A stretch of DNA of 64,000 nucleotides from Acidimicrobiia bacterium (GTDB taxonomy: Bacteria > Actinomycetota > Acidimicrobiia > Spongiisociales > ZC4RG35). Positions 5,465 to 50,589 of this stretch are shown piece after piece; within the stretch, counting starts at the first letter, position 1; each line of letters opens with the position of its first letter. The notes beneath the pieces were generated by a model. It saw nothing but the letters and a program-made list of their open reading frames with translations. It ran no database searches and was not told the origin of the DNA. The stretch lies in contig OZ244034.1 of the NCBI GenBank assembly GCA_965215185.1, forward strand, positions 1,874,244 to 1,938,243, given 5' to 3'. Made by a program: the position numbers and the translations under genes.

Positions 5465-6253
5465 TTGTCCCGTCCCATGTCGGAGACTGTTCAACTATTC
5501 GTCACTTGCGTTATCGACGCCATCTTTCCGCAAGTCGGCCGCGACGTTGTTGAGGAGTTGGAAAGAAATGGTGTAACCGTTGAATTTCCCGAGGACCAGA
5601 CCTGCTGCGGCCAGCCGGCCTACAACGCCGGGCATCTTCGGGAGGCATCCGAGGTGCTGGTCCACAATCTGGAGGTTCTGGACCGCACCGAAGGGCCCAT
5701 AGTGATTCCCTCCGGATCCTGCACCGACTTCATCATGCATCACGGCCCGCGGGTGGCCGCCGATATTCCGGGCAGGGCCGACATTGCCAAGCGGGTGGCG
5801 GCTCGCATCCGCGAGTTCACGTCTTATCTTGTCGAAAAGCGGCGAGAAATCGCCAGCGAGGGGACCGCAGACGAAAGCGGGGACAACGGAGAGCGGCGGC
5901 GGGCCTACTACCACCCTTCCTGCCACGCTCTGCGCGGCCTGGGTCTGCGCCGAGAGGGGGAAATGCTGTTGGAATCGGTGAAGGGGGTGGAACGGGTTGA
6001 ACTCGAGGGTGCCGAGGAATGCTGTGGATTCGGTGGCCTGTTCGCATTGGAGATGCCCGAAATCTCCGCCAAGATCATGAACACCAAGCTGGATCGACTG
6101 GAGAACGGGGAAGTGCAGATGCTGGTGGGCGCCGACGTGGCCTGCCTCATGCACATGGAAGGGGGCCTTCGTCGCCGCAAGAACCCCATGCAGGTGCTGC
6201 ACATCGCCTCGGCGCTGGCCGGTGGCCGGGCCGTTGATGGAGAATACCAATGA
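5465..6253 (+). CDS. lutA: L-lactate utilization protein A (Fe-S oxidoreductase with two CCG domains)
   Basis: Two cysteine-rich CCG motifs (CCG...C, CCGFGG). About 260 aa. Followed by lutB and lutC with overlapping stops and starts. Confidence 0.8.
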   Translation: MSRPMSETVQLFVTCVIDAIFPQVGRDVVEELERNGVTVEFPEDQTCCGQPAYNAGHLREASEVLVHNLEVLDRTEGPIVIPSGSCTDFIMHHGPRVAADIPGRADIAKRVAARIREFTSYLVEKRREIASEGTADESGDNGERRRAYYHPSCHALRGLGLRREGEMLLESVKGVERVELEGAEECCGFGGLFALEMPEISAKIMNTKLDRLENGEVQMLVGADVACLMHMEGGLRRRKNPMQVLHIASALAGGRAVDGEYQ

Positions 6254-7653
6254 GCCAGCCGGTTACCTTCCGCCGTCGCGCCATTGAAGAGATGGCCACT
6301 TCCAAACCCGCGGCGGTGGACCGGGCAGCGCGCCGGTTTACCGACAAACGCCAATGGGCGGTGAACGATTTCGCAGCCATGGAGGAAACCCGCGACCGGG
6401 GCCGGGAGATCCGCCTTCACACCCTGGCCAACCTGCACCGCTACCTCGACCAATTCGCCGACTCGGTGGAACGCGCCGGAGGGCAGGTGCTGTGGGCCGC
6501 CGACGCGGCTGAGGCCAACCAGCAGATCGCCGAGTTGATAGCCAGGAAAAAGGGTTCGCTGGTGATCAAATCCAAATCGATGGTCACCGAAGAACTCGGA
6601 CTCCTCCACCATCTGGAAAACGAGGGCCACACCGTGGTGGAGACCGATCTGGGAGAGTTCATCGTCCAGATCGCCAAGGACCATCCGTCCCACATCATCG
6701 CGCCGGTCATGCACCTCACCCGCCAGGACATCGGCGCCCTTTTCCAACAGGAACTGGGATTTCCCTATTCGGAGGACCCGGCTGATCTAACCCAGATGGC
6801 CCGCCGGCACCTACGACGATTTTTCCTCTCCGCCGATGTGGGGATCTCGGGAGTGAACATGGGAGTGGCCGAGACCGGATCGATAATCACCATCACCAAC
6901 GAGGGCAACGGCTGGCTGACCACCGCCGCGCCCCGGTTGCACATCGCGGTGATGGGCATGGAGCGCCTGGTTCCCACTATGAATGACGCGGCCACCATCG
7001 TGGAGATACTGGCTCGGTCGGCCACGGGTCAACGGCTGAGCGTCTACACCAATGTGGTGACCGGCCCGAGAAGACCGGGCGACCCGGACGGGCCGGACGA
7101 GATGGCGGTGGTGATCGTGGACAACGGGCGCAGCCTCGTGTTGGAAAGCGACGCCTCCGAGATCCTGGCCTGCATCCGGTGCGGCGCCTGCCTGAACGTC
7201 TGCCCTGTGTTCCGGGAGGTGGGGGGTCACGCCTACGGACAGGTGTATCCCGGTCCGGTGGGGGCGGTGCTGGCGCCCGGGCTGGCCGACTTCAAGGATC
7301 ATTTGGACCTGCCCTATGCCTCCAGCCTGTGCGGAGCGTGCCGGGAGGTATGCCCGGTGCGTATCGACATCCCCAAGCTCCTGGTCAACCAACGCGTTCG
7401 AGCCACCAAGGAAAACGATCCGTTCCGGTGGATGGGCCCGGGACTGGCCGTTTACCGCCAAGCCGGCAAGCGCCCGCTGCTGTGGAAATCGTTGCTGGCC
7501 GCCGGGCGAATGGCCGGGCGGGTAAAGAAAGAAGGCGAGTGGTTCCACCGCCTGCCCTTCCAAAGCAAAGGGTGGACCGACAGCCGCGACTTTCCCCCAC
7601 CGGCGAAACAGTCCTTCCGGCAATGGTGGAAAGAAAGCCGCGATGGAACGTAG
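6250..7653 (+). CDS. lutB: L-lactate utilization protein B (LUD domain plus 2x[4Fe-4S] binding)
   Basis: CIRCGACLNVCP and CGACREVCP ferredoxin motifs. LUD domain. 467 aa. Confidence 0.85.
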   Translation: MSQPVTFRRRAIEEMATSKPAAVDRAARRFTDKRQWAVNDFAAMEETRDRGREIRLHTLANLHRYLDQFADSVERAGGQVLWAADAAEANQQIAELIARKKGSLVIKSKSMVTEELGLLHHLENEGHTVVETDLGEFIVQIAKDHPSHIIAPVMHLTRQDIGALFQQELGFPYSEDPADLTQMARRHLRRFFLSADVGISGVNMGVAETGSIITITNEGNGWLTTAAPRLHIAVMGMERLVPTMNDAATIVEILARSATGQRLSVYTNVVTGPRRPGDPDGPDEMAVVIVDNGRSLVLESDASEILACIRCGACLNVCPVFREVGGHAYGQVYPGPVGAVLAPGLADFKDHLDLPYASSLCGACREVCPVRIDIPKLLVNQRVRATKENDPFRWMGPGLAVYRQAGKRPLLWKSLLAAGRMAGRVKKEGEWFHRLPFQSKGWTDSRDFPPPAKQSFRQWWKESRDGT

Positions 7654-20359: not shown

Positions 20360-21397
20360 CTATTCCGCCTCGGTCTCTGCGGTTTCGGCCTGGTCGGGCT
20401 CCCCGGTCCCCTCTTGCCCTCCTCCTTCACCTGGCGGCTCTTCGCCGACGATCAAGCCGCACTCCTGCAGAGTCTCATCGGGGTCGGCCCCTCCGAAGCG
20501 GATCCGCTCGAAGGCCACCACCGAGGCTATTTCCTCTGCGGTGTTGCTGGTGCCGAAGGCGGACATGAAGCCGCCTCCACCCACAGGTTTGGCCAGATCG
20601 CCATAGGTATCGATTCCCGCGTCCAGAAAACCCCCGGTGGCCAGAGTCACCCACTCTATGTGGTCCGAGCAACTGGAGAATGTGGATAGCACGGTGGCGA
20701 GCGCCGGCCCCACTCCCCCTTCGCCGTTGGCCCCATGACATCCCGCACAGGTCTCGAAAATCGCTTCCCCCACCACCAGAAATTCACCCGCCGGGTCTTC
20801 CGCCCGACCGGTGAATTCGCTGCCGTCGCAGTTGACCACCGTGGCATTGAGCCGATCGACCGCCAACTCCACACCTCCATCAACACAACCCGCCCGCGCC
20901 GAGTTCCCCGCCAGATACAGCAAACCGATAGTAGGTATCACCAGGAATAGGGCGGCGAGCCAACGAGGCAGACTGGATGAGGTTCTCTCGGTCAGGTGAG
21001 CGGTCGGCACCGACACCACCACCGGGAAAGAAACCGCTTCTTTGAGGGTGACCTCCGACGGCGTCGGCGGTGGGGCGGCCACGATGGGGACGGAGGGAAC
21101 AGGGGCAGCGGTGGGGATCGCCGGGGTAGGCGCCGTGGGAATCGCAACAGGCGGGGGGGTGGCAGGCGGGGTAGGCGCCATCGCCGCAGTTGCGGTGGGG
21201 GCGGCCGCAGTTGGCGCGGCGGGGGTGGGCGCAGAGGCCGGAGCGGAGGCTGCTGGAGCAGATCCGCCACCTGCCCAAGCCGCCAGAATCTCCTCGACGG
21301 GGACCCCGCTTGCGGCCGACCGCGCTTCGGCCGAGCGCTGGACTAAAACCTCCGGGGCGCCCATGGCTTCAGCCGCTCTGGCCAGATTTTCACTCAT
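20360..21397 (-). CDS. membrane-anchored monohaem cytochrome c with N-terminal cytoplasmic module and Ala/Pro-rich linker
   Basis: CAGCH haem motif. One TM (LPRWLAALFLVIPTIGLLYLAG). N-terminus MSENLARAAEAMGAPEVLVQRSAEARSAASGVPVEEILAAWAG is shared with the two neighbouring subunits. Confidence 0.7.
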   Translation of the reverse strand: MSENLARAAEAMGAPEVLVQRSAEARSAASGVPVEEILAAWAGGGSAPAASAPASAPTPAAPTAAAPTATAAMAPTPPATPPPVAIPTAPTPAIPTAAPVPSVPIVAAPPPTPSEVTLKEAVSFPVVVSVPTAHLTERTSSSLPRWLAALFLVIPTIGLLYLAGNSARAGCVDGGVELAVDRLNATVVNCDGSEFTGRAEDPAGEFLVVGEAIFETCAGCHGANGEGGVGPALATVLSTFSSCSDHIEWVTLATGGFLDAGIDTYGDLAKPVGGGGFMSAFGTSNTAEEIASVVAFERIRFGGADPDETLQECGLIVGEEPPGEGGGQEGTGEPDQAETAETEAE

Positions 21398-22220
21398 CGG
21401 ATCCGCCGTCGGTCAAGACTCGGGACTCCACCAGGTAAGCCACCAAAGAATCCATCGAACTGCCCCCGTAGGACAAATGCCCACCCTCACCCGAGAGCAC
21501 CGCTTGGATGTCGTCGGGCGCCATCCGGTTCCCTACATTGGCCAAGTCCGGGCCATAACGCTGCCGCCCGATCACTTGGTTGGAGTCGGACAGCGTCACC
21601 CCGCCCTGTCCCGCCAAGGCGGCCAATTGGGCGTCGGCAATTATGGGGCGGACCATTTGGGTATGGCAGGCCGCACACCCCTCCGCCAGATACTCGCCCT
21701 GACCCTGCAGAGCCATCTCACTATAGGGGATCTCGGAGTGGAGCACTCCCCTACCCAAACCCGAGATCGTGGGGACCACCAAGGTGATGGCCAGGCACAG
21801 GACCAACAGGGCGGCTGCGCCGAAGAAATACCGCAAAGGCCGATCCACCCGACCCGTCAAGATCGGGGGCGGTCCCTCGACCGTCGGGGCATAGACCACT
21901 ACCGGTCTCTGAGGAGGAGAGGATACCGTAGCCGCGACGGCGGCAGGAGCGGCTGCCGGGGCCTCAGAGGGTGCGGGAGTGGCAGCAGGTACGGGCGCAG
22001 GGCGTGCAACGGCAGGCTCGAGTTCGGCGCGGGCAGGCGACGGTGCGGGGGCGGCGGCAGGCGGTGCTTCAGGGGCGGGTTCCGGTCCCTGTCCCGCCCA
22101 AGCTCTCAGGATTTCTTCGACAGAGACGCCACTGGCGCTGGCCCGGGCTTCTGCGGAGCGTTGCACCAACTCGGTGGGAGCTCCCACGACCTGCGCGGCG
22201 GCCTCCAACAGCTCGCTCAT
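21390..22220 (-). CDS. membrane-anchored monohaem cytochrome c, paralogous N-terminal module
   Basis: CAACH haem motif. One TM. N-terminus MSELLEAAAQVVGAPTELVQRSAEARASASGVSVEEILRAWAG. ATGA overlap with the upstream membrane protein gene. Confidence 0.7.
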   Translation of the reverse strand: MSELLEAAAQVVGAPTELVQRSAEARASASGVSVEEILRAWAGQGPEPAPEAPPAAAPAPSPARAELEPAVARPAPVPAATPAPSEAPAAAPAAVAATVSSPPQRPVVVYAPTVEGPPPILTGRVDRPLRYFFGAAALLVLCLAITLVVPTISGLGRGVLHSEIPYSEMALQGQGEYLAEGCAACHTQMVRPIIADAQLAALAGQGGVTLSDSNQVIGRQRYGPDLANVGNRMAPDDIQAVLSGEGGHLSYGGSSMDSLVAYLVESRVLTDGGSDE

Positions 22221-23623
22221 TCTTCTTCCTCTTCCCGCATCTGAGATTCCGACGGTTCCGATCTGCCGGAATCGGCAGGTTCCTGGTCAGCGGCCAAGGC
22301 GAGAATCTCCTGGGCGGCCGGTCGTCCAGAGGTGAAGGTCCTCAACACCGCCAAACAGAAGGAGAGCTGACCTACCAGCGTCAGCAGACCCGACAGTATG
22401 GACAATCCCACCAGCAACGAGGCCATACCCACCAGACTCTCCCAACCATCCCCGGTGGGGCTGACACCGGTATAGGACCCTCCCGTCCAACCGTAACCCG
22501 ACATCAGTCCGGCGCCCACCAACAGGGCGGAAGTCAAGCCCACCCCCCAGAAGGTGAAGCGCAGATGAAGCTGGGCAAGCCCCACTCCGGCCATCTTCCG
22601 GCCAGTGATCGACGGAAGCGCCTGATACGACCAAGCCGCCACCAGCAGCCCGCCGGCTCCGAACAGGGCAGCGTAGAGCACACCGTCCCAAAACGGCGTG
22701 AGACCCACCACCGCCGCCGCGGAACGGACGGCGCCGAAGCTGGTCAAAGCCGCGGTCATCAAAGCGAAAAAGACACCCGCCAAGGCGGCCGCCACCACGG
22801 GACGCGTTCTTCGCTCCGCCCAGAACTGATCGGCGGTCAAGGCGAAGTTGGCGGCGTTGGCCAAAGCAGACACGGGAAGGGCGAGGGTCATCAGGAATGC
22901 CACCGCTTCCAACCAACCGGGAACCGGGCCGAAAACCAAGGGGGCGACTCCCGACCATGCCGACGCGAAAGCCAGCGACCAGAAACCCACTCTGGCCAAC
23001 TGCCGGCTGGCGAGAGGGTTTCCCGTCTCCTTCACCAAGGCGTAGTAGGCAAGCCCGATTCCCATTCCCACCACCCACAGGTTGGCGAGTCCAAACAGAG
23101 CGACCGACTCGGATAGGGCTCCACCCATCGCCGAGGACGCGGGAAGCGCCCCCACCAGATACAGCAACGGAAGCCACACCACCCCACCCATGGCATACCA
23201 CAAAGAAACATAGATATTGGGTTCTTGCCGATGCCGGACCGTAGAGATGGTGACCAACATCGGCGTCAGCAGGGTCAGGAACAACGGAAGGGCGACCCAC
23301 CAGGGAAGAGAGAAAGGACCCGTCCCATCTCCCCAACCCAACAACACCACTACCGCGCCCACCACGGTCACCAGGGCCGTGGCCACTCCCCCCGCCAATG
23401 CCAATCCTTCGCCGCGCAGGCGGGCGCCGGTGAGCCTGGGCAGCAAATAGTAGATTCCACCGACCAGCGACAGGGTCAACCAGCCCATCACGGCCAGCAG
23501 CAGGGCGATCGGGCGGATGCGACCGTAGGAGAAGGGCCCGGTCAGCGTCCCCGGGAACCGCAGTTCCACCATCGCCGCCACCCACACGACCCCGGCCAGG
23601 GCCAAAAAGGCGGTGGAGATCAC
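22217..23623 (-). CDS. polytopic (about 12-TM) integral membrane protein, unknown function, first gene of the cytochrome c operon
   Basis: 468 aa, highly hydrophobic, acidic C-terminal tail. YYLLPRLTGARL motif faintly like haem-copper oxidase subunit I, but only 2 His in the whole protein. Confidence 0.55.
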   Translation of the reverse strand: MISTAFLALAGVVWVAAMVELRFPGTLTGPFSYGRIRPIALLLAVMGWLTLSLVGGIYYLLPRLTGARLRGEGLALAGGVATALVTVVGAVVVLLGWGDGTGPFSLPWWVALPLFLTLLTPMLVTISTVRHRQEPNIYVSLWYAMGGVVWLPLLYLVGALPASSAMGGALSESVALFGLANLWVVGMGIGLAYYALVKETGNPLASRQLARVGFWSLAFASAWSGVAPLVFGPVPGWLEAVAFLMTLALPVSALANAANFALTADQFWAERRTRPVVAAALAGVFFALMTAALTSFGAVRSAAAVVGLTPFWDGVLYAALFGAGGLLVAAWSYQALPSITGRKMAGVGLAQLHLRFTFWGVGLTSALLVGAGLMSGYGWTGGSYTGVSPTGDGWESLVGMASLLVGLSILSGLLTLVGQLSFCLAVLRTFTSGRPAAQEILALAADQEPADSGRSEPSESQMREEEEE

Positions 23624-23938
23624 GATGTGCCATTTGGCAGCGGTATCAGAACCTAAGGTGTCCGACCACCCAGCGTAAGGCGCGACTCGCTTTTGCGGAT
23701 GTCCGACTTGATTATTCTTTGTCGTATTCAGAGCGCTACCCCCGGTGGCTCCGGAAATGAAAGGTTAGCCATGCTCGCCGCTCCAAAAGATAGCAAGAAA
23801 GAAACCCCACCGGGCGCAAGCGGCGCCGAGGGGCGTCAGGGCGGCCTTGGGATGAAAAAGGGTGCTAAGACTTTGTTTGAAGCACGTTCCGGTGTAAAAA
23901 TAGAAGTGCTTCGACCCCGGAAGGCCATCTGGTAAGAG

Positions 23939-24568
23939 ATGCACCGCCTCGCTTCTATAAGCTACCGAACAAGAATTCTCGTCGGTTGGTCGTCGCTATT
24001 GCTGGGAACAGGCCTCCTGGCGGTCGCCGTGCTGTGGATCCACTACTCGAAGCTGCCGCAGACCGAGATTGTCAACGGAGTGTCGACGGCGGTGGTGGTT
24101 GACTACTTCAACTGGATACCCCGAGGCTGGTTCTGGAAAAGCCTCGGTTATCTGGCCGCCCTGAGCGCCTCCCAGATGATGTTGGTGGGAGCGGCCTTCC
24201 TCTGGGTGCTTAACCAAAAGATGACCTGGGCGAGAGCGGCGTTTGCCGCCTTTTTGATCTGGATCGAGCTGGTGATGGTGTTCGGGATCGTTCCATCCGA
24301 GTGGCTGAACCTCTCTCAGACCGACCTGGACTGGTCGGGACAGCGGATCGCGTTACGGATCCCTCCGGCCTTGATGCTGGGCAACGAGGTCTCGATTAGT
24401 TGGGCGGCCATCAAAGACTCCATTTCAGGCGCCTACAACGTGGGAACGCTGGCCGCCGCCGGCGTCTTTGCCTACCTGCTCCAGCAGGTCTACAAGCCGC
24501 CCAAGAAGCAGGCCGCCAAGGTCAAAGTGTCACCCTATGGGCGGCCGCTGGTGAAGGGAGATCGTTGA
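23939..24568 (+). CDS. 4-TM membrane protein of unknown function, first gene of the bc-type operon
   Basis: 209 aa with four hydrophobic helices. Stop lies 1 bp before the ferredoxin start. Confidence 0.5.
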   Translation: MHRLASISYRTRILVGWSSLLLGTGLLAVAVLWIHYSKLPQTEIVNGVSTAVVVDYFNWIPRGWFWKSLGYLAALSASQMMLVGAAFLWVLNQKMTWARAAFAAFLIWIELVMVFGIVPSEWLNLSQTDLDWSGQRIALRIPPALMLGNEVSISWAAIKDSISGAYNVGTLAAAGVFAYLLQQVYKPPKKQAAKVKVSPYGRPLVKGDR

Positions 24569-24569
24569 G

Positions 24570-25019
24570 ATGCCCCGCGGTGTTGTGGACGAGACCCCGC
24601 CCTTTCGCGACGATTACCAGCTCACCCTGGTCGACAACAACTTCTATAACGGAAAGATCCGTCCCAAACAGTTTCTCCACATCGATCAGTCCGAATGCAT
24701 CCTTTGCGAGGGCTGTGTGGACATCTGCCCGTGGAAATGCATCTTTTATCTCTCCATGGAGGCCATCGACGAAGCGGTCAATGTCGACGATCCCCGCGAG
24801 GACCTCACCAACTATGGTTTCTTCGTTGTCGACGAGAACGAGTGCACCCGTTGCGCCCTGTGCATCGACCGCTGTCCCACCGGCGTCATCTCACTCGGCA
24901 AATTCGAAGGTTCTCTGGCCGCCCAGGCTGAAGAAATGGGGCTCAACTCGTCGCCCTGGGAGGTGGATACCGGCCAGAGGGACTTCAAACATGGCTATAC
25001 CTATGGAATGCGCTGGTAA
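24570..25019 (+). CDS. 2[4Fe-4S] dicluster ferredoxin-domain protein
   Basis: CILCEGCVDICP and CTRCALCIDRCP motifs. 149 aa. Confidence 0.75.
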   Translation: MPRGVVDETPPFRDDYQLTLVDNNFYNGKIRPKQFLHIDQSECILCEGCVDICPWKCIFYLSMEAIDEAVNVDDPREDLTNYGFFVVDENECTRCALCIDRCPTGVISLGKFEGSLAAQAEEMGLNSSPWEVDTGQRDFKHGYTYGMRW

Positions 25020-25029
25020 GGAGTGAAGC

Positions 25030-25818
25030 GTGAGTAGACAAAACGGCAAACAGGGCCTTTTGACCAAAGCCCGTACCCATGCGACCGGTTTGATGGGACG
25101 GGTCTGGTCCGGCCAGTTCATGGACTCGGTTCTGCGCCCCGGCTCCCCCTTCAAGAAGGGATACACCGACACTCCTCGTAACCGCTCCTATGTGATCATG
25201 AACAACGTGCTGTATCACCTCCATCCGGTGAAGGTGAAACGACACGGTGTGAAGCTCTCCTACACCCTGTGCCTGGGGGGGATGAGCTTTTTCCTGTTCA
25301 TTCTCCTGACCATCACCGGCATTTTCCTCATGTTCTATTACGCCCCCACCGCCGAGCGGGCCTACATAGATGTGCAGGCGCTGTCCACCGACATCGCGTT
25401 CGGCTCCCTGATGAGGAACATGCACCGATGGGGCGCCCATCTGATGGTGCTGACCGTGTTCCTCCACATGTCGAGAGTGTTTTACCACGGGGCTTACAAG
25501 CCGCCCCGCGAGTTCAACTGGATAGTGGGAGTCATCCTGTTGCTGTTGACCCTCCTCCTCTCCTTTACCGGGTATCTGCTTCCCTGGGACCAGTTGGCGC
25601 TGTGGGCCGTGACGGTGGGCAGCAACATGGCCGGCTTCGTTCCTGTCATAGGCGCGCAGGTGAAATTTGCCCTTTTGGGCGGAGTGGAGGTAACCGCGGG
25701 AACGCTTTTGCGATGGTATGTGCTCCACGTTCTCTTCCTGCCCTTCATCATCGTGATCTTCCTGGCAGTCCATTTCTGGAGAGTCCGCAAAGACGGCGGC
25801 ATCTCCGGCCCTCTCTAA
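25030..25818 (+). CDS. cytochrome b (N-terminal half, cytochrome b6-like) of a Rieske/cytochrome b complex
   Basis: Four TM helices. Bis-His haem ligands (HRWGAHLMV...H and HVLFLPF...H). 262 aa. Confidence 0.85.
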
Positions 25819-25837
25819 CCATGCAAGGTATGCGCTA

Positions 25838-26785
25838 GTGCCACAAATCCCTGAAGAACTGCTGAGACGCTCCGCCGAGGCGAAGGCCAAAGCGCTGGGT
25901 TTGCCGGTGGAACAGGTGCTGGCCGAGATGCGAGGGGAAGCTCCGGTCACCGAGATAGCCGCCGAGTCGGTGTCGGTGCCCGCTCCCCGCTTCGTTCCCA
26001 CCACAGCCCGCATCCCTGTTTCCGAGATGCCCCCCGACCCGCAGCCGCCCGACCCCGCCTCGGCGCCGCCGCCCGCCATCACGGCAGTGGACGAGGTGGA
26101 AGAAGCCCAAGCCGAAGTAGCCGAGACTCCCGCCGCTGAAGCCCCCACCGCTTCGGAACCGGGCGCGCCGGCCGGGGAGAACAGCGCCGGGAACGGACGG
26201 CTGGCGGCGGTCGTGTCGGTTCGACCCTCGGTGCCGCCCACCGACCTGCCCAAAGGCGTACGCCATCAACGACTGCTCACGGTGGTCAAAGCCCGAGCCA
26301 TCCAACAGGTAAAGGCCGATCCCACCGACAAGGTGAACACCTGGCCGCATCTGATGATCACCGAGTTCACCGCCCTCTTGGCGATGACCGCCTTTCTCCT
26401 GGTGCTCTCGGTCATCCTTCAGGCGCCTCTCCTGGAGTCGGCCAACTTCAACTCCACCCCCAACCCGTCCAAGGCGCCCTGGTACTTCTTGGGCCTGCAA
26501 GAGATGCTCTCCTACTTCGATCCGCAGATCGCCGGGGTGACCGTGCCGACGGTGATCGGGTTAGTGGGATTCATGATGATTCCCTACATAGACCGCAATC
26601 CCTCCACCCGCCCGTCGGACCGCAAACTGGCCATCATGCTTTACACCATCTTCCTGGCCGGGTCGGCGACCCTCACCATCCTGGGGGTGCTGTTCCGTGG
26701 CCCCGGGTTCAACTTCGTCTACCCATGGGTTGATGGGGTGTTCTTCGATGACCTGAAAGACTGGGTTGATTTTGGTGGGCACTGA
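25838..26785 (+). CDS. cytochrome b C-terminal half / subunit-IV-like protein with N-terminal cytoplasmic module and long Pro/Ala-rich linker
   Basis: PNPSKAPWYFLGLQEML, the PEWY-type motif of cytochrome b/PetD. N-terminus MPQIPEELLRRSAEAKAKALGLPVEQVLAEMRG matches the N-termini of the two cytochromes c. Confidence 0.75.
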   Translation: MPQIPEELLRRSAEAKAKALGLPVEQVLAEMRGEAPVTEIAAESVSVPAPRFVPTTARIPVSEMPPDPQPPDPASAPPPAITAVDEVEEAQAEVAETPAAEAPTASEPGAPAGENSAGNGRLAAVVSVRPSVPPTDLPKGVRHQRLLTVVKARAIQQVKADPTDKVNTWPHLMITEFTALLAMTAFLLVLSVILQAPLLESANFNSTPNPSKAPWYFLGLQEMLSYFDPQIAGVTVPTVIGLVGFMMIPYIDRNPSTRPSDRKLAIMLYTIFLAGSATLTILGVLFRGPGFNFVYPWVDGVFFDDLKDWVDFGGH

Positions 26786-26813: not shown

Positions 26814-27677
26814 ATGGGCGGCGTCGAACTGATCATCATCGGTGTGGCGGCGGTCGCCATCGCCGCCGCGGTGGGTGCCTTCACCATCGCCTTCCGCCGC
26901 GCCGAACCCGACCCCGCTTCTCTGTGGCCCAAGAAGCTGGAGCGTGGCGCCCGGAAAGCGGACCGTTCCACCTCCACCATGGAACTGGTGCTTACCACCG
27001 AGGCGGATGCTGTGGACGAGGACGAGGAAGTCGATGCACCAGAATACGAAGCCCCGGCCCCGGTGGCAGAGCGCTTGGCGCCCATCACCGAATCCCAGGT
27101 AATCGTTGAGGCGTCTGCAGAGGAGGTGGGGGTAACCCGCCGACAGTTCTTCAACCGGTCCCTGGCCGCCATGTCGGTGGCCTGGTTCGGGATCATGGGA
27201 ATCGAGATCCTGGCCTTCCTGTGGCCCAAGATCACCGGAGGATTCGGAAGCGACGTCGACGCCGGGAGCGCCGCCGACCTGGTTCCCGAGATGACCGACA
27301 CCGCGGGCCTGGTAACTCCGGCTTTCATCCCCGACGCCCGCGCCTACGTGGTACCGGCGCCCGTTGAGATGAGTCAGCAATTCGCTGGCAGAGATGTGGC
27401 GGCCGGAGGGCTGATGGCGCTCTACCAGCGGTGCGTCCACCTGGGATGCCGGGTGCCCTGGTGCGACGACTCCCAGGGCTTCGAATGTCCCTGCCACGGC
27501 TCCAAATACAACTCGGTCGGAGAGTATTTTGCTGGCCCCGCACCCCGAAATCTGGACCGTTTCTCGGTCCACGTCACCGACGATGGGCGTCTGATAATCA
27601 GGACCGGGGTTATAGTGGAAACCCCCCGGGCTAACGCTCAGTCTGTGTCATATCCGCAAGGCCCCTCCTGCATATAG
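26814..27677 (+). CDS. Rieske [2Fe-2S] iron-sulfur protein, Tat-dependent, with extra N-terminal TM helix
   Basis: Twin-arginine [13 protein letters not shown]. Rieske boxes CVHLGC and CPCHGS. 287 aa. Confidence 0.85.
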
Positions 27678-27687
27678 GGGAGATATT

Positions 27688-29394
27688 GTGGATTCCTCGC
27701 TAGTAATAACCCTGGTGGTGGTGGGAGCCGTAATCTGGCTCTCCTTTTTGGGAGTGGCCGCCCTGCGCTCCCGACGGCGGGAAGGAATCCCTCCCAACCA
27801 GGCGCCGGGCGTCACCGACGACGCTTTGGAAACCCGCCGCCTGGAACGTATCCAACAGGCCGCCGTCCTGCTGTCGGCCTTCCTGGCGGTGGGGCTGGCT
27901 GTTTACTACCTGAGCGAAACCGATCGACAGGAAAGCTTCGTGGACCAGTTCCACGAGGAGTCGGTGGAACGCGGCGCCGAACTGGTCGGGCCCGACGAGG
28001 CCGACTGCTGGAGTTGTCACGGCCCCAGCGGAGTGGGAGGTGTGGCCAGCTATGTGGAGAAGCGCACCGGGGTGAACGTGTCATGGTCGGCGCCTTCACT
28101 CGATGACATCTTCTTGCGTTATGACCGTGACATAATCACCTATTGGGTGACCTATGGGCGAGGCAACTCCCCCATGCCGCCGTGGGGCACGGTGGGAGGC
28201 GGTCCCATGAACGAACAACAGGTTTTCGACATCGTCAACTACCTGGAAAGTATCCAACTCTCTCAGCAGAACATCCTCCGCAAGGCCGACACCATCGTGG
28301 TGGGTCAGCTGAGTGTTCTGGAGAATGCCGACCAGGCCCTGGAAAAGGCCATTATCGAACAGCGCCAACTGATCGCCGACATCGAGGCGGCGCCCCGGTA
28401 CGCCGAGATGATGGCCAATCTGGTAGCGCTCGCCCGCCAGAGCCTGAATGGCTCGGACCGGGGGATCGATCGCGACGGTGACAACTTGTCGGACGTTTCA
28501 GAAGTGACGATCTCCCAACTGACCGCTGCCGCAGCGGCCCTGTTCGACATCAATCAGATCGAGGCTCTGACATTCGATCCGCAGAATCCCGCCACTGACG
28601 GCCGTCCCGACGCAGATGTAGCCGACCATGCCATCTCCCATCTGCAGGAGGTGGTGCCCCAGGTGCCGATTCTCGAGTTGCGCGTGCAGTCCATCAGAAC
28701 GGCGCTGCTGGCCGAGGACGAGGAGGACTCCGACGGTGACCAACTCTCCGATCGGGCGGAAAGAGTGCTAACCGCCGAACTGGCCATCGCCAGGACGGCG
28801 CTTCGCCCTAATACCTTGACAGTGGTGAACCTCGACCCGGAGCGTGCTTCTTCGGGTGGGGGAGTCAACGATGATCAAACCGCCGCCACCGCCGTCTCGG
28901 GTATGGAGGCCGCCGCCGTAAACCTGGCGGTACGAACCGAAAACGGCGAGCGGCTGCTCGGTCCGGCCCGGGCGGGACTGGAAGAGTTACTGGCCGCCCA
29001 GGAGCAGCGGAAATGGGAGATAGACCTGGAAGGCGTGGCCGCGGCCGCCTTCTTTGGAAATTCGGAGCAGGCCTCCCGGGCGGTCGGTGTGTTCACCGGG
29101 TATTGCGCGCGCTGCCACACTTCCGGCTGGTCGGCGGGGACCCCCTACGCTGCTCAACCCGGCTCGGGGGGATTCGGGCCGGCGCTTTGGAAGGGCCGAC
29201 CGCATGTTCAGTTCCTAAACAAGGAGAAACTGCGCTCCTTCCTGTTGGTGGGAGCGGTTGCGGACCGGCCTTACGGAGTGAACGGATTCGGAAATGGCCA
29301 GATGCCCGCCTTCGGGACGGTGCTCTCATCCGACGACCTGGACCTGCTGGTGGAGTACTTGTGGGCAGGGAATCTTAACGGCAAGGGAACCTAA
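27688..29394 (+). CDS. dihaem cytochrome c (QcrC-like), N-terminally membrane-anchored, with a about 300-aa inserted domain
   Basis: CWSCHG and CARCHT haem motifs at about residue 110 and 480. Two N-terminal TMs. Insert carries DRDGDNLSDVSE and DSDGDQLSDRAE loops. Confidence 0.75.
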   Translation: MDSSLVITLVVVGAVIWLSFLGVAALRSRRREGIPPNQAPGVTDDALETRRLERIQQAAVLLSAFLAVGLAVYYLSETDRQESFVDQFHEESVERGAELVGPDEADCWSCHGPSGVGGVASYVEKRTGVNVSWSAPSLDDIFLRYDRDIITYWVTYGRGNSPMPPWGTVGGGPMNEQQVFDIVNYLESIQLSQQNILRKADTIVVGQLSVLENADQALEKAIIEQRQLIADIEAAPRYAEMMANLVALARQSLNGSDRGIDRDGDNLSDVSEVTISQLTAAAAALFDINQIEALTFDPQNPATDGRPDADVADHAISHLQEVVPQVPILELRVQSIRTALLAEDEEDSDGDQLSDRAERVLTAELAIARTALRPNTLTVVNLDPERASSGGGVNDDQTAATAVSGMEAAAVNLAVRTENGERLLGPARAGLEELLAAQEQRKWEIDLEGVAAAAFFGNSEQASRAVGVFTGYCARCHTSGWSAGTPYAAQPGSGGFGPALWKGRPHVQFLNKEKLRSFLLVGAVADRPYGVNGFGNGQMPAFGTVLSSDDLDLLVEYLWAGNLNGKGT

Positions 29395-29397
29395 GTA

Positions 29398-29757
29398 ATG
29401 CGTGAACTGTTTCGCTCGCTGCTATCGGCCAACCTGTTCGTCACCGGGATCATCCTGCTGGTGACGGCGATCTTGGTCTTCTACGGCACCGTCTACCTTC
29501 TCAACTACACCAACCTAGGAAAGAAGCTGGCGTTCCTGGTGACCGGGGCCGGGATCTCGGCCTGGATGACCATAGGCAGCATGCTCTTCGTCCTCTACGC
29601 TCCCCGCGGCCCCCGCCCGGCCAACATCGAGGGACTCAACGCCTTCGAAGTGCGGATCATCCCCATCACTTTCACAGTGGTCTCGGCCGTTCTTTTCATC
29701 GGATTCCTGGTAGCCCTCCACCAATACGAAGAAGCCCGAGAAAAAGCCGACCTTTAA
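29398..29757 (+). CDS. small 3-TM membrane protein (putative accessory subunit)
   Basis: 119 aa. Start 4 bp after the cytochrome c stop. Confidence 0.45.
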   Translation: MRELFRSLLSANLFVTGIILLVTAILVFYGTVYLLNYTNLGKKLAFLVTGAGISAWMTIGSMLFVLYAPRGPRPANIEGLNAFEVRIIPITFTVVSAVLFIGFLVALHQYEEAREKADL

Positions 29758-49341: not shown

Positions 49342-50589
49342 TTGGAGATGATGAGCGGCGCTGACGTGTTGGTGGTGGGAGGAGGCCCCGCCGGAGCGGC
49401 CGCCGCCTACTGGCTGGGCAGGGACGGCCATGCCGTGACCCTGGTGGAGCGCAAATCCTTTCCCCGCGACAAGACCTGCGGAGATGGTCTGACCCCCCGC
49501 GCCATCTATCAACTCGCCGAGATGGGTTTCGACTTCTCGGTGCCCGGATTCCATCGCATAACCGGACTGCGCTCCTACGCCGGGGACAAGGTGATGTTGG
49601 AGATGCCCTGGCCCGACCATTCCCGCTTTCCCGACTGGGGGGGAGTGATCCGCCGCCGAGACCTTGACCAGCAGGTGGCGGATCTGGCCCGAAGCCAAGG
49701 AGTGGCCGTCCGGGAGAAAACGGAAGCCCGACCCCTGGTCCAGGACGGGTCCCTGGAAGGCGTCGAATTGAGAGCCAATGGCTCGGTGGAGACGGTGCGG
49801 CCGAAGGTGGTGATCGTGGCCGACGGCGCTCTGAACCGCTTCGGGCGACATTTGGGGGTGATCCGTCGCAAGGACTACCCCTTGGGTTTGGCCGCCCGCG
49901 GCTACTACCAGAGCCCCCGGTCGACCGACTCCTTTTTGGAAAGCCAGTTGGATATCCGCGACAGTACGGGGGCCACCATGCCTGGCTATGGCTGGGTGTT
50001 CCCGCTGGGAGATGGCACAGTCAATGTGGGAGTGGGGCTGCTTTCCACCTTCAAGCGGTGGAAGCAGGCCAACACCACCAAGATGATGGCGGACTGGGCC
50101 GACGCTGCTCCCGACTACTGGGGTCTTTCCGAGGACACCCGGCTCACCGATCCGGTGGGCGGCGCCCTGCAGATGTCGTTTTCCCGCTCTCCTCTGGCAG
50201 GGCCGAACTGGCTGGTGATCGGCGATGCGGCGGCGGCGATCAACCCATGGAACGGTGAAGGCATCGCCTACGCATATGAGACGGGGCGAATCGCCGCCGG
50301 GTTGGTGGGTGAGGCAATGGCGGGTAACAAGCCCGATGTTCTGCTGCGATATCCCCAACTCCTGGACGGGGAGTACGGCCTCTATTACCGGACGGCCCGG
50401 ATCTTCGTGAAACTCATCGGCCGCCCGGCCGTGATGCGAACTCTGGCCCATACCGGCCTGCGCAACCGCCCCCTTATGGAGTGGACCCTGAAAGTGATGT
50501 CCAATCTGCTGGACGACGACGAACGCGGCATTGGCGAACAGGTCTACCGGGCACTGCAAGGACTCGCGAGAGGTATCCCCGTTGCGTAA
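49342..50589 (+). CDS. geranylgeranyl reductase-family FAD-dependent oxidoreductase
   Basis: VVGGGPAGAAAA dinucleotide motif. CGDG motif. 415 aa. Confidence 0.75.
   Translation: MEMMSGADVLVVGGGPAGAAAAYWLGRDGHAVTLVERKSFPRDKTCGDGLTPRAIYQLAEMGFDFSVPGFHRITGLRSYAGDKVMLEMPWPDHSRFPDWGGVIRRRDLDQQVADLARSQGVAVREKTEARPLVQDGSLEGVELRANGSVETVRPKVVIVADGALNRFGRHLGVIRRKDYPLGLAARGYYQSPRSTDSFLESQLDIRDSTGATMPGYGWVFPLGDGTVNVGVGLLSTFKRWKQANTTKMMADWADAAPDYWGLSEDTRLTDPVGGALQMSFSRSPLAGPNWLVIGDAAAAINPWNGEGIAYAYETGRIAAGLVGEAMAGNKPDVLLRYPQLLDGEYGLYYRTARIFVKLIGRPAVMRTLAHTGLRNRPLMEWTLKVMSNLLDDDERGIGEQVYRALQGLARGIPVA

Follow-up and report, generated by a model that had tools for sequence, protein, structure and literature searches.

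The window, a stretch of 64,000 nucleotides from an Acidimicrobiia bacterium (contig OZ244034.1), carries two divergently arranged operons with respiratory genes. Two monohaem cytochromes c and a PetD/subunit-IV-like protein encoded there begin with copies of the same short module. The genes and features are listed below (aa, amino acids; TM, transmembrane helix; W-type and M-type are the two subtypes of the module, described further on).

20360-21397, minus strand: gene of a monohaem cytochrome c (c1), 345 aa, CxxCH at 217, membrane-anchored and in the CcoP position; Pfam Cytochrom_C 27 bits against a cut-off of 21.3; its 5' end shares 8 nt with the 3' end of the FixO-like gene
20963-21262, minus strand: Ala/Pro/Thr-rich linker of this cytochrome, residues 46-145, 78% A+P+T+S+E, followed by TM 146-164
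21263-21397, minus strand: W-type module of this cytochrome, residues 1-45, 71% identical to the FixO-like copy
21390-22220, minus strand: gene of a FixO/CcoO-like monohaem cytochrome c (c2), 276 aa, CxxCH at 182; its 5' end shares 4 nt with the 3' end of the CcoN-like gene
21831-22085, minus strand: Ala/Pro-rich linker of the FixO-like protein, residues 46-130, 72% A+P+T+S+E, followed by TM 131-149
22086-22220, minus strand: W-type module of the FixO-like protein, residues 1-45, HMM E=4e-22, helices 2-12, 16-30 and 34-41
22217-23623, minus strand: CcoN-like 12-TM protein (Pfam COX1), first gene of the minus-strand operon, no module
23939-24568, plus strand: 209-aa membrane protein, first gene of the plus-strand operon
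24570-25019, plus strand: 2x[4Fe-4S] ferredoxin-like protein of the plus-strand operon
25030-25818, plus strand: cytochrome b6 (split) of the plus-strand operon
25838-26785, plus strand: PetD/subunit-IV-like gene, 315 aa, 3 TM; Pfam Cytochrom_B_C 32.1 bits against a cut-off of 20.7
25838-25942, plus strand: M-type module of the subunit-IV-like protein, residues 1-35, two helices (6-20, 24-31)
25943-26221, plus strand: disordered linker of the subunit-IV-like protein, residues 36-128, pLDDT below 50 almost throughout, no secondary structure
26814-27677, plus strand: Rieske protein, no module
27688-29394, plus strand: dihaem cytochrome c, no module
29398-29757, plus strand: small 4-TM protein, last gene of the plus-strand operon, here without a module

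An earlier note on this DNA had reported the three open reading frames and their N-terminal sequences, and both proved correct as described. The FixO-like carrier shows the hallmarks of CcoO/FixO, namely a Pfam FixO score of 46.9 bits against the curated cut-off of 29.6, CxxCH at 182 and a single N-terminal TM (131-149); NCBIfam ccoO-type matches stay below their cut-offs. The subunit-IV-like gene lies directly 3' of the split cytochrome b6 gene, its TM helices span residues 180-198, 231-249 and 264-282, and it has every feature looked for in PetD/b6f subunit IV.

The same note had called the carriers membrane-anchored redox subunits; to call them subunits of an oxidase would need qualifying because of the CcoN-like partner. 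This protein matches Pfam COX1 (E=2.6e-25, 89.6 bits against a cut-off of 34.8), and it scores 106 bits with TIGR00780, far under the cut-off of 583. All six canonical invariant haem/copper His ligands are missing from it; its histidines are His131 and His353, and no alignment column of the 48 CcoN-like orthologues has at least 50% His. Lacking conserved His, the CcoN partner of the FixO-like carrier cannot hold haem b, haem b3 or CuB by canonical ligation. The gene order (CcoN-like, FixO-like, a further c-type cytochrome) and the COX1/ccoN and FixO/ccoO matches are those of cbb3 CcoNOP. In contrast to cbb3, the FixO-like and third subunits bear an N-terminal module and linker; to our knowledge, canonical CcoO and CcoP have no such extension. 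The CcoN-like genes of these Acidimicrobiia loci should thus not be counted as oxidases in metabolic reconstructions.

Since the sequence is Ala-rich and the genome high in GC, it had to be asked whether the N-termini resemble each other by chance. In composition-corrected BLASTP the two cytochromes c match with E=1e-14 (71% identity over 45 aa), while c1 against subunit IV gives only 6e-4, and this last value is what a chance likeness of low-complexity N-termini could draw on. Run on the window in all six reading frames, an HMM of the three copies recovers these alone (next best E=0.21). A profile built from the cytochrome-c-type copies of other genomes alone detects the subunit-IV copy of the window at E=2e-9, and one built from the subunit-IV-type copies of other genomes alone detects c1 at 3e-8 and c2 at 5e-8. 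Identical residues of the c1 and c2 copies use identical codons at 8 of 30 positions, not above the between-genome background of 0.34, so that what has been kept is the protein sequence, and a recent repeat of the DNA is not the source of the similarity. The profile search proposed in the earlier note recovered the similarity: among 1.84 billion (1.84e9) protein representatives, 439 clusters were matched at E<=1e-3, of which 270 reached E<=1e-10, and one protein can bear as many as 7 copies. The consensus given there holds as well, as P15, R21, S22, A25 and A27 are at least 90% conserved in 81 diverse copies; G31 and W/M41 are also conserved. Cross-detection by independent profiles, the database clusters, the near-invariant non-Ala positions P15/R21/S22 and a confidently predicted fold together refute a chance or low-complexity origin, to which we assign practically no probability. 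It can be concluded that the module is a real, folded and strongly selected domain.

The module had been described as about 40 residues long. The full form has about 45 residues in three helices, and the subunit-IV copy is shorter (about 33-35 aa), without the first helix. The isolated module was predicted by AlphaFold2 as a three-helix mini-domain (pLDDT 91.5, pTM 0.69; 81-sequence alignment). In the full-length model of subunit IV it keeps a pLDDT of 87-88 for residues 11-30 and stays undocked on its own protein (pTM 0.24). As the earlier note had stated, an Ala/Pro-rich linker and then the first TM helix follow; pLDDT, conservation and TM prediction agree that this linker is disordered, weakly conserved and of variable length. 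In subunit IV the linker is 56% A+P+T+S+E and 61-171 aa long in orthologues, with a column conservation of 0.40 compared to 0.94 for the module and 0.88 for the TM body; a separate juxtamembrane cytoplasmic segment (residues 116-172) is well conserved (0.84). The cytoplasmic orientation assumed in that note we infer from known topologies: CcoO and PetD are N-in proteins, natural CcoN-FixO fusions agree, and Lys/Arg counts around the first TM of the two cytochromes are 2-3 before against 1 after (3 and 1 in the FixO-like protein).

Two subtypes of the module can be distinguished. The W-type (W41/A42/V19/R26) is found in all 91 FixO-like, all 119 monohaem c and all 11 multi-TM copies, and the M-type (M41/L19/K26/K28) in 71 of 95 subunit-IV copies; the 4-TM protein has M-type residues with L or M at position 41. 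Thus the M-type sits on cytochrome-b-side carriers and the W-type on cytochrome-c and oxidase-side carriers. This split could reflect an ancient duplication followed by vertical descent, and not binding specificity.

Isolated modules gave no Pfam match at E<=10 in hmmscan except one chance-level match to MIF, and no NCBIfam, PDB-sequence or significant fold match was obtained. We conclude that the module is a previously undescribed domain which merits its own database entry. Fragments of it are at present annotated as "HpaF", "TonB" or "MFS permease".

Modules, 1-7 of them in tandem, are widely spread among Acidimicrobiia, Ca. Actinomarina included, and all module-bearing sequences examined belong to this class. 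Among these sequences it occurs only at the N-termini of membrane proteins, which fall into six families, all encoded in respiratory gene clusters or tied to them by gene order or homology. Subunit IV itself comes from the split-cytochrome-b (b6c-type) complex, and a paralogue resembling it from an orphan b6/IV pair. The CcoN-like cluster contributes its FixO-like and its monohaem cytochrome c. The other two families are a small 4-TM accessory protein and a multi-TM protein encoded beside the caa3 oxidase operon. Inspection of the 150 best profile matches yielded 147 newly retrieved proteins, 73 of which could be assigned: 27 to the FixP-position cytochrome c, 21 to the FixO-like protein, 13 to subunit IV or its paralogue, 9 to the multi-TM protein, 2 to the small 4-TM protein and 1 to a CcoN-like read-through. 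The remaining 74 were apparent fragments or frameshifted calls. Absence from orthologous loci, which would have spoken against the module, was not found: across 78 genome loci with the same divergent gene arrangement it is present on 54 subunit-IV, 68 FixO-like and 67 monohaem-c genes, and 47 loci combine divergent synteny of both operons with all three modules.

The link of the multi-TM family (105 of 119 homologues carry the module) to caa3 is one of gene neighbourhood: it adjoins COX2/COX1/COX3/COX4/CtaG in L025, L081 and L082-84 and CtaG in L080, and in L001 its neighbours are Lgt and serA-type genes only. The last gene of the window's bc-type operon has its homologues in the module-bearing 4-TM family, which adjoins a homologue of the operon's first gene; in the window, positions 29446-29739 match the family member P0150 (tblastn, E=1e-17, 43% identity), and homologues elsewhere carry 3-7 tandem modules. 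Orphan b6/IV-like pairs with 3-5 modules adjoin, in L087, L089 and L090, a gene with Rex-type domains (Put_DNA-bind_N + CoA_binding). Tandem copies are spaced by linkers of 30-50 disordered residues. No module was detected on the Rieske protein, dihaem c, cytochrome b6 or the CcoN-like protein, and about 1 Mb of flanking DNA contains no further ORF with even a weak copy.

Selection on the module is evident from 20 invariant columns in 72 subunit-IV orthologues, from its retention in the streamlined Ca. Actinomarina genomes and from the c-type modules. The latter share 65-70% identity among orthologues; for the haem domains of the proteins that carry them, the median identity to the window's proteins is about 46-47%. 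R21-S22-A23-E24-A25 form a near-invariant run within one helix; as five consecutive helical residues cannot all be buried, part of this run must be exposed. The two cytochrome-c copies are more alike within a genome (43 of 43 identical codons in Actinomarina loci), which is largely gene conversion and gives no evidence of co-evolution, and no within-genome correlation was seen between the subunit-IV copy and the c-type copies.

What could such a domain be for? The earlier note had proposed a common docking, assembly or regulatory partner, and the distribution suggests something of this kind, since three further carrier families are tied to respiratory clusters. We tentatively favour, with some doubt, a tethered protein-protein docking handle that helps to co-assemble or co-localise respiratory complexes. 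Every respiratory membrane complex would present at least one module to the cytoplasm, borne on a long disordered Ala/Pro tether. Modules would bind one another (W with M, or W with W) or one common cytoplasmic hub. Through this binding, the quinol-oxidising complex, the membrane-anchored cytochromes c and the terminal oxidase would stay assembled or clustered. Docking could start during translation, since the module emerges from the ribosome 85-145 residues earlier than the first TM helix. Tandem copies with linkers of 30-50 residues are typical of avidity-based binding; however, tethers reaching tens of nanometres would not be needed for a tight supercomplex.

The same distribution would also be expected if a single cytoplasmic regulator, such as a kinase, protease adaptor or redox/energy sensor, used the module as its common binding site and switched, inhibited or degraded all respiratory complexes together, without holding them together. 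A regulatory docking site on the n-side of b6f is already known at the N-terminus of subunit IV: in chloroplasts, control of the STT7 kinase requires the PetD N-terminus (PMC13287000). It is the same end of the same subunit, on the n/cytoplasmic side and in docking or regulatory use; on the other hand, the chloroplast tail is a short, non-homologous peptide that lacks both a folded domain and a linker of at least about 90 residues, and it is unshared with other complexes. The Rex-type-domain neighbour would suit a regulator but is seen only in the orphan-pair lineage, and 5-7 copies are harder to explain for a 1:1 regulatory contact, so that we regard this reading as unlikely. We give slightly less credence still to a signal for biogenesis, in which the module folds on the ribosome, is recognised by a targeting, insertion or quality-control factor before the first TM appears, and has no later role. 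The module is always N-terminal and ahead of that helix, it occurs only on N-in membrane proteins, and FixO parts fused to the CcoN C-terminus, which hence have no free N-terminus, do without it. Yet targeting needs no 3-7 tandem copies, some of them internal; the module-free proteins of the same operons are evidently made without it, and two conserved subtypes are unexpected for a single targeting factor.

The partners named in the earlier note, the operon's ferredoxin-like subunit or the cytoplasmic face of the 12-TM CcoN-like protein, found no support. The ferredoxin-like protein has neither TM nor signal sequence and so needs attachment to a membrane complex; nevertheless, in L088 no ferredoxin gene separates the 200-aa protein from cytochrome b, and the modules are kept on subunit IV, with 5 copies on the monohaem c. 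No ferredoxin gene is annotated beside the caa3-adjacent or orphan-pair carriers. The module also occurs on proteins of the CcoN-like cluster, beside caa3 and in orphan b6/IV pairs, segment 116-172 of subunit IV is a more natural fixed docking surface, and AlphaFold leaves the module undocked. Docking to either protein is therefore very improbable. Finally, a nucleic-acid-binding helix-turn-helix (SAP/HeH-like or HTH) could tie respiratory complexes to DNA or RNA. The module has three helices and an A27-G31-I37 spacing, and precomputed HTH_23 and Xre-like-HTH matches were faint, with none in hmmscan. The FixO-like copy is net acidic (6 Asp/Glu against 3 Arg/Lys), and the third helix (VEEILRAW or VEQVLAEM) has few basic residues where a basic or polar recognition helix would be expected. 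SAP/Rho_N reached an hhalign probability of 0.1% and had no Pfam match, and ANTAR structures share 9-22% sequence identity with the module. We thus consider this reading exceedingly unlikely.

Returning to the docking handle, a bolder version of it, which we hold to be rather less probable, is a cytoplasmic 'velcro' for the whole aerobic chain: M and W copies would bind each other or an oligomeric hub through their tethers and corral three complexes into a respiratory patch or string. The W-type copies would then sit on the caa3-associated membrane protein and on a cytochrome-c unit for which a CcoN relative devoid of cofactors serves as scaffold. If true, this would be a cytoplasmic-side supercomplex organisation undescribed for any respiratory chain, and thus a new way of building respiratory supercomplexes. 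A single domain, strongly conserved yet without annotation, is shared by the quinol-oxidising complex, the membrane-anchored cytochromes c and the terminal oxidase, on their subunits or on neighbours of these, and it offers a testable handle on their joint assembly, organisation or regulation; at 45 residues it can readily be expressed, deleted or employed as bait. Ca. Actinomarina is among the most abundant marine actinobacteria and other Acidimicrobiia are widespread in soil and sponges, and we know of no biochemical study of their respiratory chain.

Known III-IV supercomplexes (actinobacterial bc-aa3; bc1-cbb3 of Rhodobacter and Pseudomonas) likewise couple a quinol:cytochrome c reductase and a terminal oxidase via membrane-anchored c-type cytochromes, and the known bc-aa3 coupling leads one to expect that a lineage of Actinomycetota needs close coupling. 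They are held by transmembrane and periplasmic-side contacts; a tethered domain shared on the cytoplasmic side did not turn up in the literature that we searched. Papers on these assemblies include PMC8361435, a review of bc-aa3, and PMC7876108 and PMC10556555 on bc1-cbb3. CsoS2, CcmM and EPYC1 are multivalent linker proteins with short repeated binding motifs and disordered spacers, as in lineages with 3-7 modules. These are, however, soluble Rubisco-binding scaffolds, whereas the module repeats belong to membrane subunits and many genomes have one copy per protein. The PSBD (Pfam E3_binding) of 2-oxoacid dehydrogenase E2 gave no Pfam match and an hhalign probability of 0.7% against five PSBD sequences. 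It differs in having two helices and a structured loop instead of three regular helices, and in sitting on an acyltransferase (E2) core instead of cytochromes c, subunit IV and other membrane proteins. It is likewise a helical mini-domain of about 35-45 residues between flexible Ala/Pro-rich linkers, and its sole job is to recruit partner proteins; the PSBD thus offers the nearest parallel to a possible mode of action of the module.

The region of interest comprises two operons transcribed divergently from the minus and the plus strand, and their genes are the following.

20360-21397, minus strand: membrane-anchored monohaem cytochrome c, 345 aa
21390-22220, minus strand: FixO/CcoO-like monohaem cytochrome c, 276 aa
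22217-23623, minus strand: CcoN-like 12-TM protein, 468 aa (Pfam COX1, E=2.6e-25)
23939-24568, plus strand: membrane protein of 209 aa without a Pfam or NCBIfam family, first gene of the plus-strand operon
24570-25019, plus strand: 2x[4Fe-4S] ferredoxin-like protein without a TM helix or signal sequence
25030-25818, plus strand: cytochrome b6
25838-26785, plus strand: PetD/subunit-IV-like protein, 315 aa
26814-27677, plus strand: Rieske protein
27688-29394, plus strand: dihaem cytochrome c
29398-29757, plus strand: 4-TM protein of 119 aa without a Pfam or NCBIfam family, last gene of the plus-strand operon

The start codons of the minus-strand operon overlap the upstream stops by 4 and 8 nt. 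On the plus strand the ferredoxin-like gene lies inside the Rieske/cytochrome b6 operon, between the 209-aa membrane protein and cytochrome b6, a position that hints at a bc-type complex with an iron-sulfur subunit on the cytoplasmic side. At the N-terminus of the Rieske protein there is an additional TM helix; an acidic linker of about 90 residues separates it from an RRQFF twin-arginine-like motif, after which comes a second TM helix.

An earlier note, made from the sequence alone, had proposed that both cytochromes c and the subunit-IV-like protein share an N-terminal module, and all three proteins do start exactly as quoted there. In composition-corrected BLASTP the two cytochrome c modules matched each other at E=1e-14 (32/45 identical residues) and the cytochrome c and subunit IV modules at E=6e-4. 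A three-copy HMM run against all six frames of the 64-kb window recovered these three copies alone, with the next best match at E=0.21. Profiles built independently, from other genomes, gave the same picture: the subunit-IV copy of the window was detected at E=2e-9 by a profile of cytochrome-c-type copies alone, and both cytochromes at 3e-8 and 5e-8 by a profile of subunit-IV-type copies alone, with no further match below E=0.2. The observation of a shared module is thus confirmed by BLASTP, by the window HMM and by the cross-profiles; the similarity goes beyond Ala-rich composition, the module is kept in orthologous loci, and chance resemblance is extremely improbable. Between the two cytochrome modules of the window only 8/30 identical residues are encoded by identical codons, a fraction no higher than the background between genomes (0.34). 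Conservation thus acts at the level of the protein rather than of DNA or RNA, and the copies do not stem from a recent duplication.

The complete unit of about 45 residues is visible in the internal copies of multi-copy proteins. It consists of helix 0 (ELLAAAAEA), a Gly-x-Pro turn, helix 1 (E-x-LV-x-RSAEARAKA), a Gly-containing turn and helix 2 (SVEEVLAEWAG), and P15, R21, S22, A25 and A27 are conserved in at least 90% of 81 copies whose identity to the query is 28-68%. AlphaFold2, supplied with this 81-sequence alignment, predicted the isolated module as a three-helix bundle (helices 2-12, 16-30 and 34-41; mean pLDDT 91.5, pTM 0.69). The N-terminal copy of subunit IV is without helix 0, and in the full-length model it forms a two-helix hairpin (pLDDT about 88), followed by residues 35-128, which have no secondary structure and a pLDDT below 50 nearly throughout. 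The pTM of this model, 0.24, indicates that the module is not packed onto the membrane domain. Across 72 orthologues of subunit IV, mean column conservation is 0.94 in the module, 0.40 in the linker and 0.88 in the transmembrane body, and the linker varies from 61 to 171 residues. The cytochrome linkers measure 85 and 100 residues, with 72-78% Ala/Pro/Thr/Ser/Glu. Subunit IV is also conserved in another part of its cytoplasmic region, residues 116-172 just upstream of the first TM helix (NG-x-GNGR ... RLLTVVKARAIQQVK), with conservation of 0.84 and a helix predicted at 139-159; this segment may be a fixed docking surface separate from the tethered module.

The N-in topology of CcoO and PetD is established. 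Together with the 2-3 Lys/Arg found just upstream of the TM helix in both cytochromes (one downstream), and with naturally occurring fusion proteins in which FixO follows the cytoplasmic C-terminus of CcoN, this topology argues for a cytoplasmic location of the module. The module folds into a mini-domain and is under strong selection; it forms the free tip of a disordered tether with which these N-in membrane proteins begin.

We assessed the distribution of the module across genomes by several searches. Profile search of 1.84 billion representative proteins returned 439 clusters at E<=1e-3, of which 270 reached E<=1e-10; single proteins had as many as seven copies. In a word-indexed protein database the module profile found 29 short fragments without architecture information. 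A scan of one genome per GTDB species, with a 12-sequence module alignment as the query, gave at least 349 confirmed matches, from which 78 loci were kept. In these loci the module is present on 54 subunit-IV genes, 68 FixO-like genes and 67 monohaem-c genes, whose arrangement is divergent just as in the window, and no weak or divergent copies were detected on other ORFs in about 1 Mb of fetched flanking DNA. The label is Acidimicrobiia, Ca. Actinomarina/OCS155 or Actinomycetota for most of the loci and just "bacterium" for some. Seven of the 78 come from MAGs labelled Acidobacteria or Gammaproteobacteria; these labels are probably wrong, because the encoded proteins are as similar to those of the window as typical Acidimicrobiia ones. 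Among subunit-IV orthologues the module was found in 118/120, the other two being N-terminally truncated calls.

The 150 best matches included 147 newly retrieved proteins, of which 73 could be assigned to a family; the remaining 74 look like fragments or frameshifted calls. The assigned carriers are monohaem cytochromes c (27), FixO-like proteins (21), subunit IV or IV-like proteins (13), a 6-8-TM family without a Pfam or NCBIfam match (9), a small 4-TM family (2) and one read-through from a CcoN-like gene. Among these and in the loci examined, all carriers are proteins in, or encoded beside, respiratory gene clusters. Public annotations of module/linker fragments and of the multi-TM family (P0001, P0019, P0297 and others) are misleading, e.g., 'HpaF protein', 'energy transducer TonB' or 'MFS family permease'.

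The 6-8-TM family has 428 members, and exactly one N-terminal module was present in 105 of the 119 homologues listed. Its gene adjoins a caa3-type oxidase operon (COX2-cytochrome c, COX1, COX3, COX4, CtaG) in loci L025, L081 and L082-84 and CtaG in L080; on the 5-kb contig L001 the visible neighbours are only Lgt and a dehydrogenase. The 4-TM family is homologous to the last plus-strand gene of the window (E=1e-17), and a 4-TM protein with 5-7 modules is encoded directly downstream of a homologue of the 209-aa first gene. The 209-aa and 119-aa membrane proteins probably form one accessory unit. Homologues of their two genes, 23939-24568 (+) and 29398-29757 (+), are adjacent in other Acidimicrobiia (L085, 2-2524; L086, 628-2946).

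Some subunit-IV-like carriers are only 32-36% identical to the true subunit IV. Those whose loci were examined (L089, 49-2168; L090, 8873-11455) belong to an orphan cytochrome b6/IV-like pair, away from any Rieske or cytochrome c gene; the pair adjoins a rhodanese gene and a gene that encodes Rex-type domains, and its subunit-IV-like protein carries 3-5 modules. A similar neighbourhood in L087 (1699-3647) encodes P0153, a 3-TM protein with five modules, whose membrane domain had no BLAST match to subunit IV when low-complexity regions were masked. The module is multivalent in some lineages. A gene for an FAD-binding protein lies near the carriers in L090 and L087; its homologue occurs in the window at 49342-50589, and the orphan pair is absent there.

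Module copies fall into two subtypes, and the subtype tracks the type of carrier. The W-type (V19, R26, W41, A42) is found on 91/91 FixO-like, 119/119 monohaem-c and 11/11 multi-TM copies, and the M-type (L19, R20, K26, K28, L30, Q36, E40, M41) on 71/95 subunit-IV copies. The 4-TM protein also has the M-type, with either L or M at position 41. Identity between orthologues is 65-70% for the cytochrome-c modules, whereas for the haem domains of these cytochromes the median identity to the window's proteins is about 46-47%. Cytochrome-c copies of the same genome are 86% identical, versus 67% between genomes (0/2000 permutations reach 86%). In Ca. Actinomarina/OCS155 the module-coding 5' ends of the FixO-like and monohaem-c genes are identical at the DNA level over 41/41 to 43/43 codons (L012, L017, L027, L030, L031, L033-L035, L057, L070 and L078, about 6000-7000 in each), a pattern that indicates that gene conversion between the adjacent genes is ongoing, across a direct repeat of about 130 bp. 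The within-genome excess similarity of the cytochrome-c copies, examined as a sign of co-evolution, is mostly gene conversion. Since the subunit-IV copy has no such excess towards the cytochrome-c copies, these data are neither evidence for nor against an interaction. In genomes without conversion, that of the window included, the cytochrome-c copies are still about 70% alike in protein sequence.

The CcoN-like protein contains two histidines in total, at 131 and 353, and in an alignment of 48 orthologues no column is at least 50% His. Canonical CcoN requires six histidine ligands. As all six haem b/b3/CuB ligands are missing here, the cluster of the CcoN-like protein, the FixO-like protein and the cytochrome c cannot be a canonical cbb3 oxidase; the CcoN-like protein rather looks like a cofactor-less scaffold for the two membrane-anchored cytochromes c. 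At locus L088 (5015-8793) it is fused to FixO in one protein of 641 aa, so that FixO lacks a free N-terminus and has no module. The next gene there encodes a monohaem cytochrome c with five modules, and the subunit IV, 258 aa long in total, retains a single module and a short linker.

What could such a module do? The earlier note suggested a common docking, assembly or regulatory tag, a plausible idea to which the wider distribution lends strength. We infer that the module would act as a docking handle on respiratory membrane proteins. R21-S22-A23-E24-A25 is a nearly invariant run within one helix, where it is not fully buriable, and it is thus a probable binding face. Every respiratory cluster examined has at least one carrier and copy number rises to seven; therefore we favour, tentatively, a role in holding complexes together, in which the module may keep the quinol-oxidising complex, the membrane-anchored cytochromes c and the oxidase in one another's company. 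Contacts would run from module to module or via one cytoplasmic hub, and the holding together could begin co-translationally. In published structures of respiratory III-IV supercomplexes, the contacts that hold them together lie in the membrane and on the periplasmic side. In the literature searched we met no account of a tethered cytoplasmic domain common to several complexes, nor a paper that brings together Acidimicrobiia, supercomplexes and cytochromes or that treats the respiratory complexes of this group; the UBA5794/Actinomarinales genome paper gives standard complex III and IV annotation only.

The module could also offer a site common to the complexes at which a regulator binds, by analogy with the N-terminus of chloroplast PetD, which has a role in STT7 control (PMC13287000); we consider this rather doubtful, and that the module is a signal for biogenesis or targeting is unlikely. 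Docking of the operon's own ferredoxin is quite improbable, as L088 keeps its modules in an operon without a ferredoxin gene. The A27-G31-I37 spacing and faint precomputed HTH matches suggest a helix-turn-helix-like geometry, but nucleic-acid binding is very unlikely, since acidic residues outnumber basic ones in the module and the last helix contains few of the latter.

We also compared the module with known families and folds. Hmmscan of the isolated modules against Pfam (E<=10) gave a chance-level MIF match alone; for the full carriers, Pfam and NCBIfam matches were confined to the haem, CcoN-like or cytochrome-b/subunit-IV domains, and the multi-TM and 4-TM carriers had no NCBIfam match. 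Among PDB sequences the module profile found designed repeat proteins only, via a short "LGISVEELL" helix-turn motif, and Foldseek found nothing at E<1. SAP/Rho_N homology was rejected at an hhalign probability of 0.1%, using a small alignment. We conclude that the module is a small domain not described before, and that its three-helix fold is generic. Its closest analogue in working principle is the PSBD of E2 chains, a mini-domain which sits between Ala/Pro linkers and recruits partners; the module itself does not belong to that family (hhalign probability 0.7% against a small PSBD alignment). The module family is new, and the tethered docking mini-domain is a device already known.
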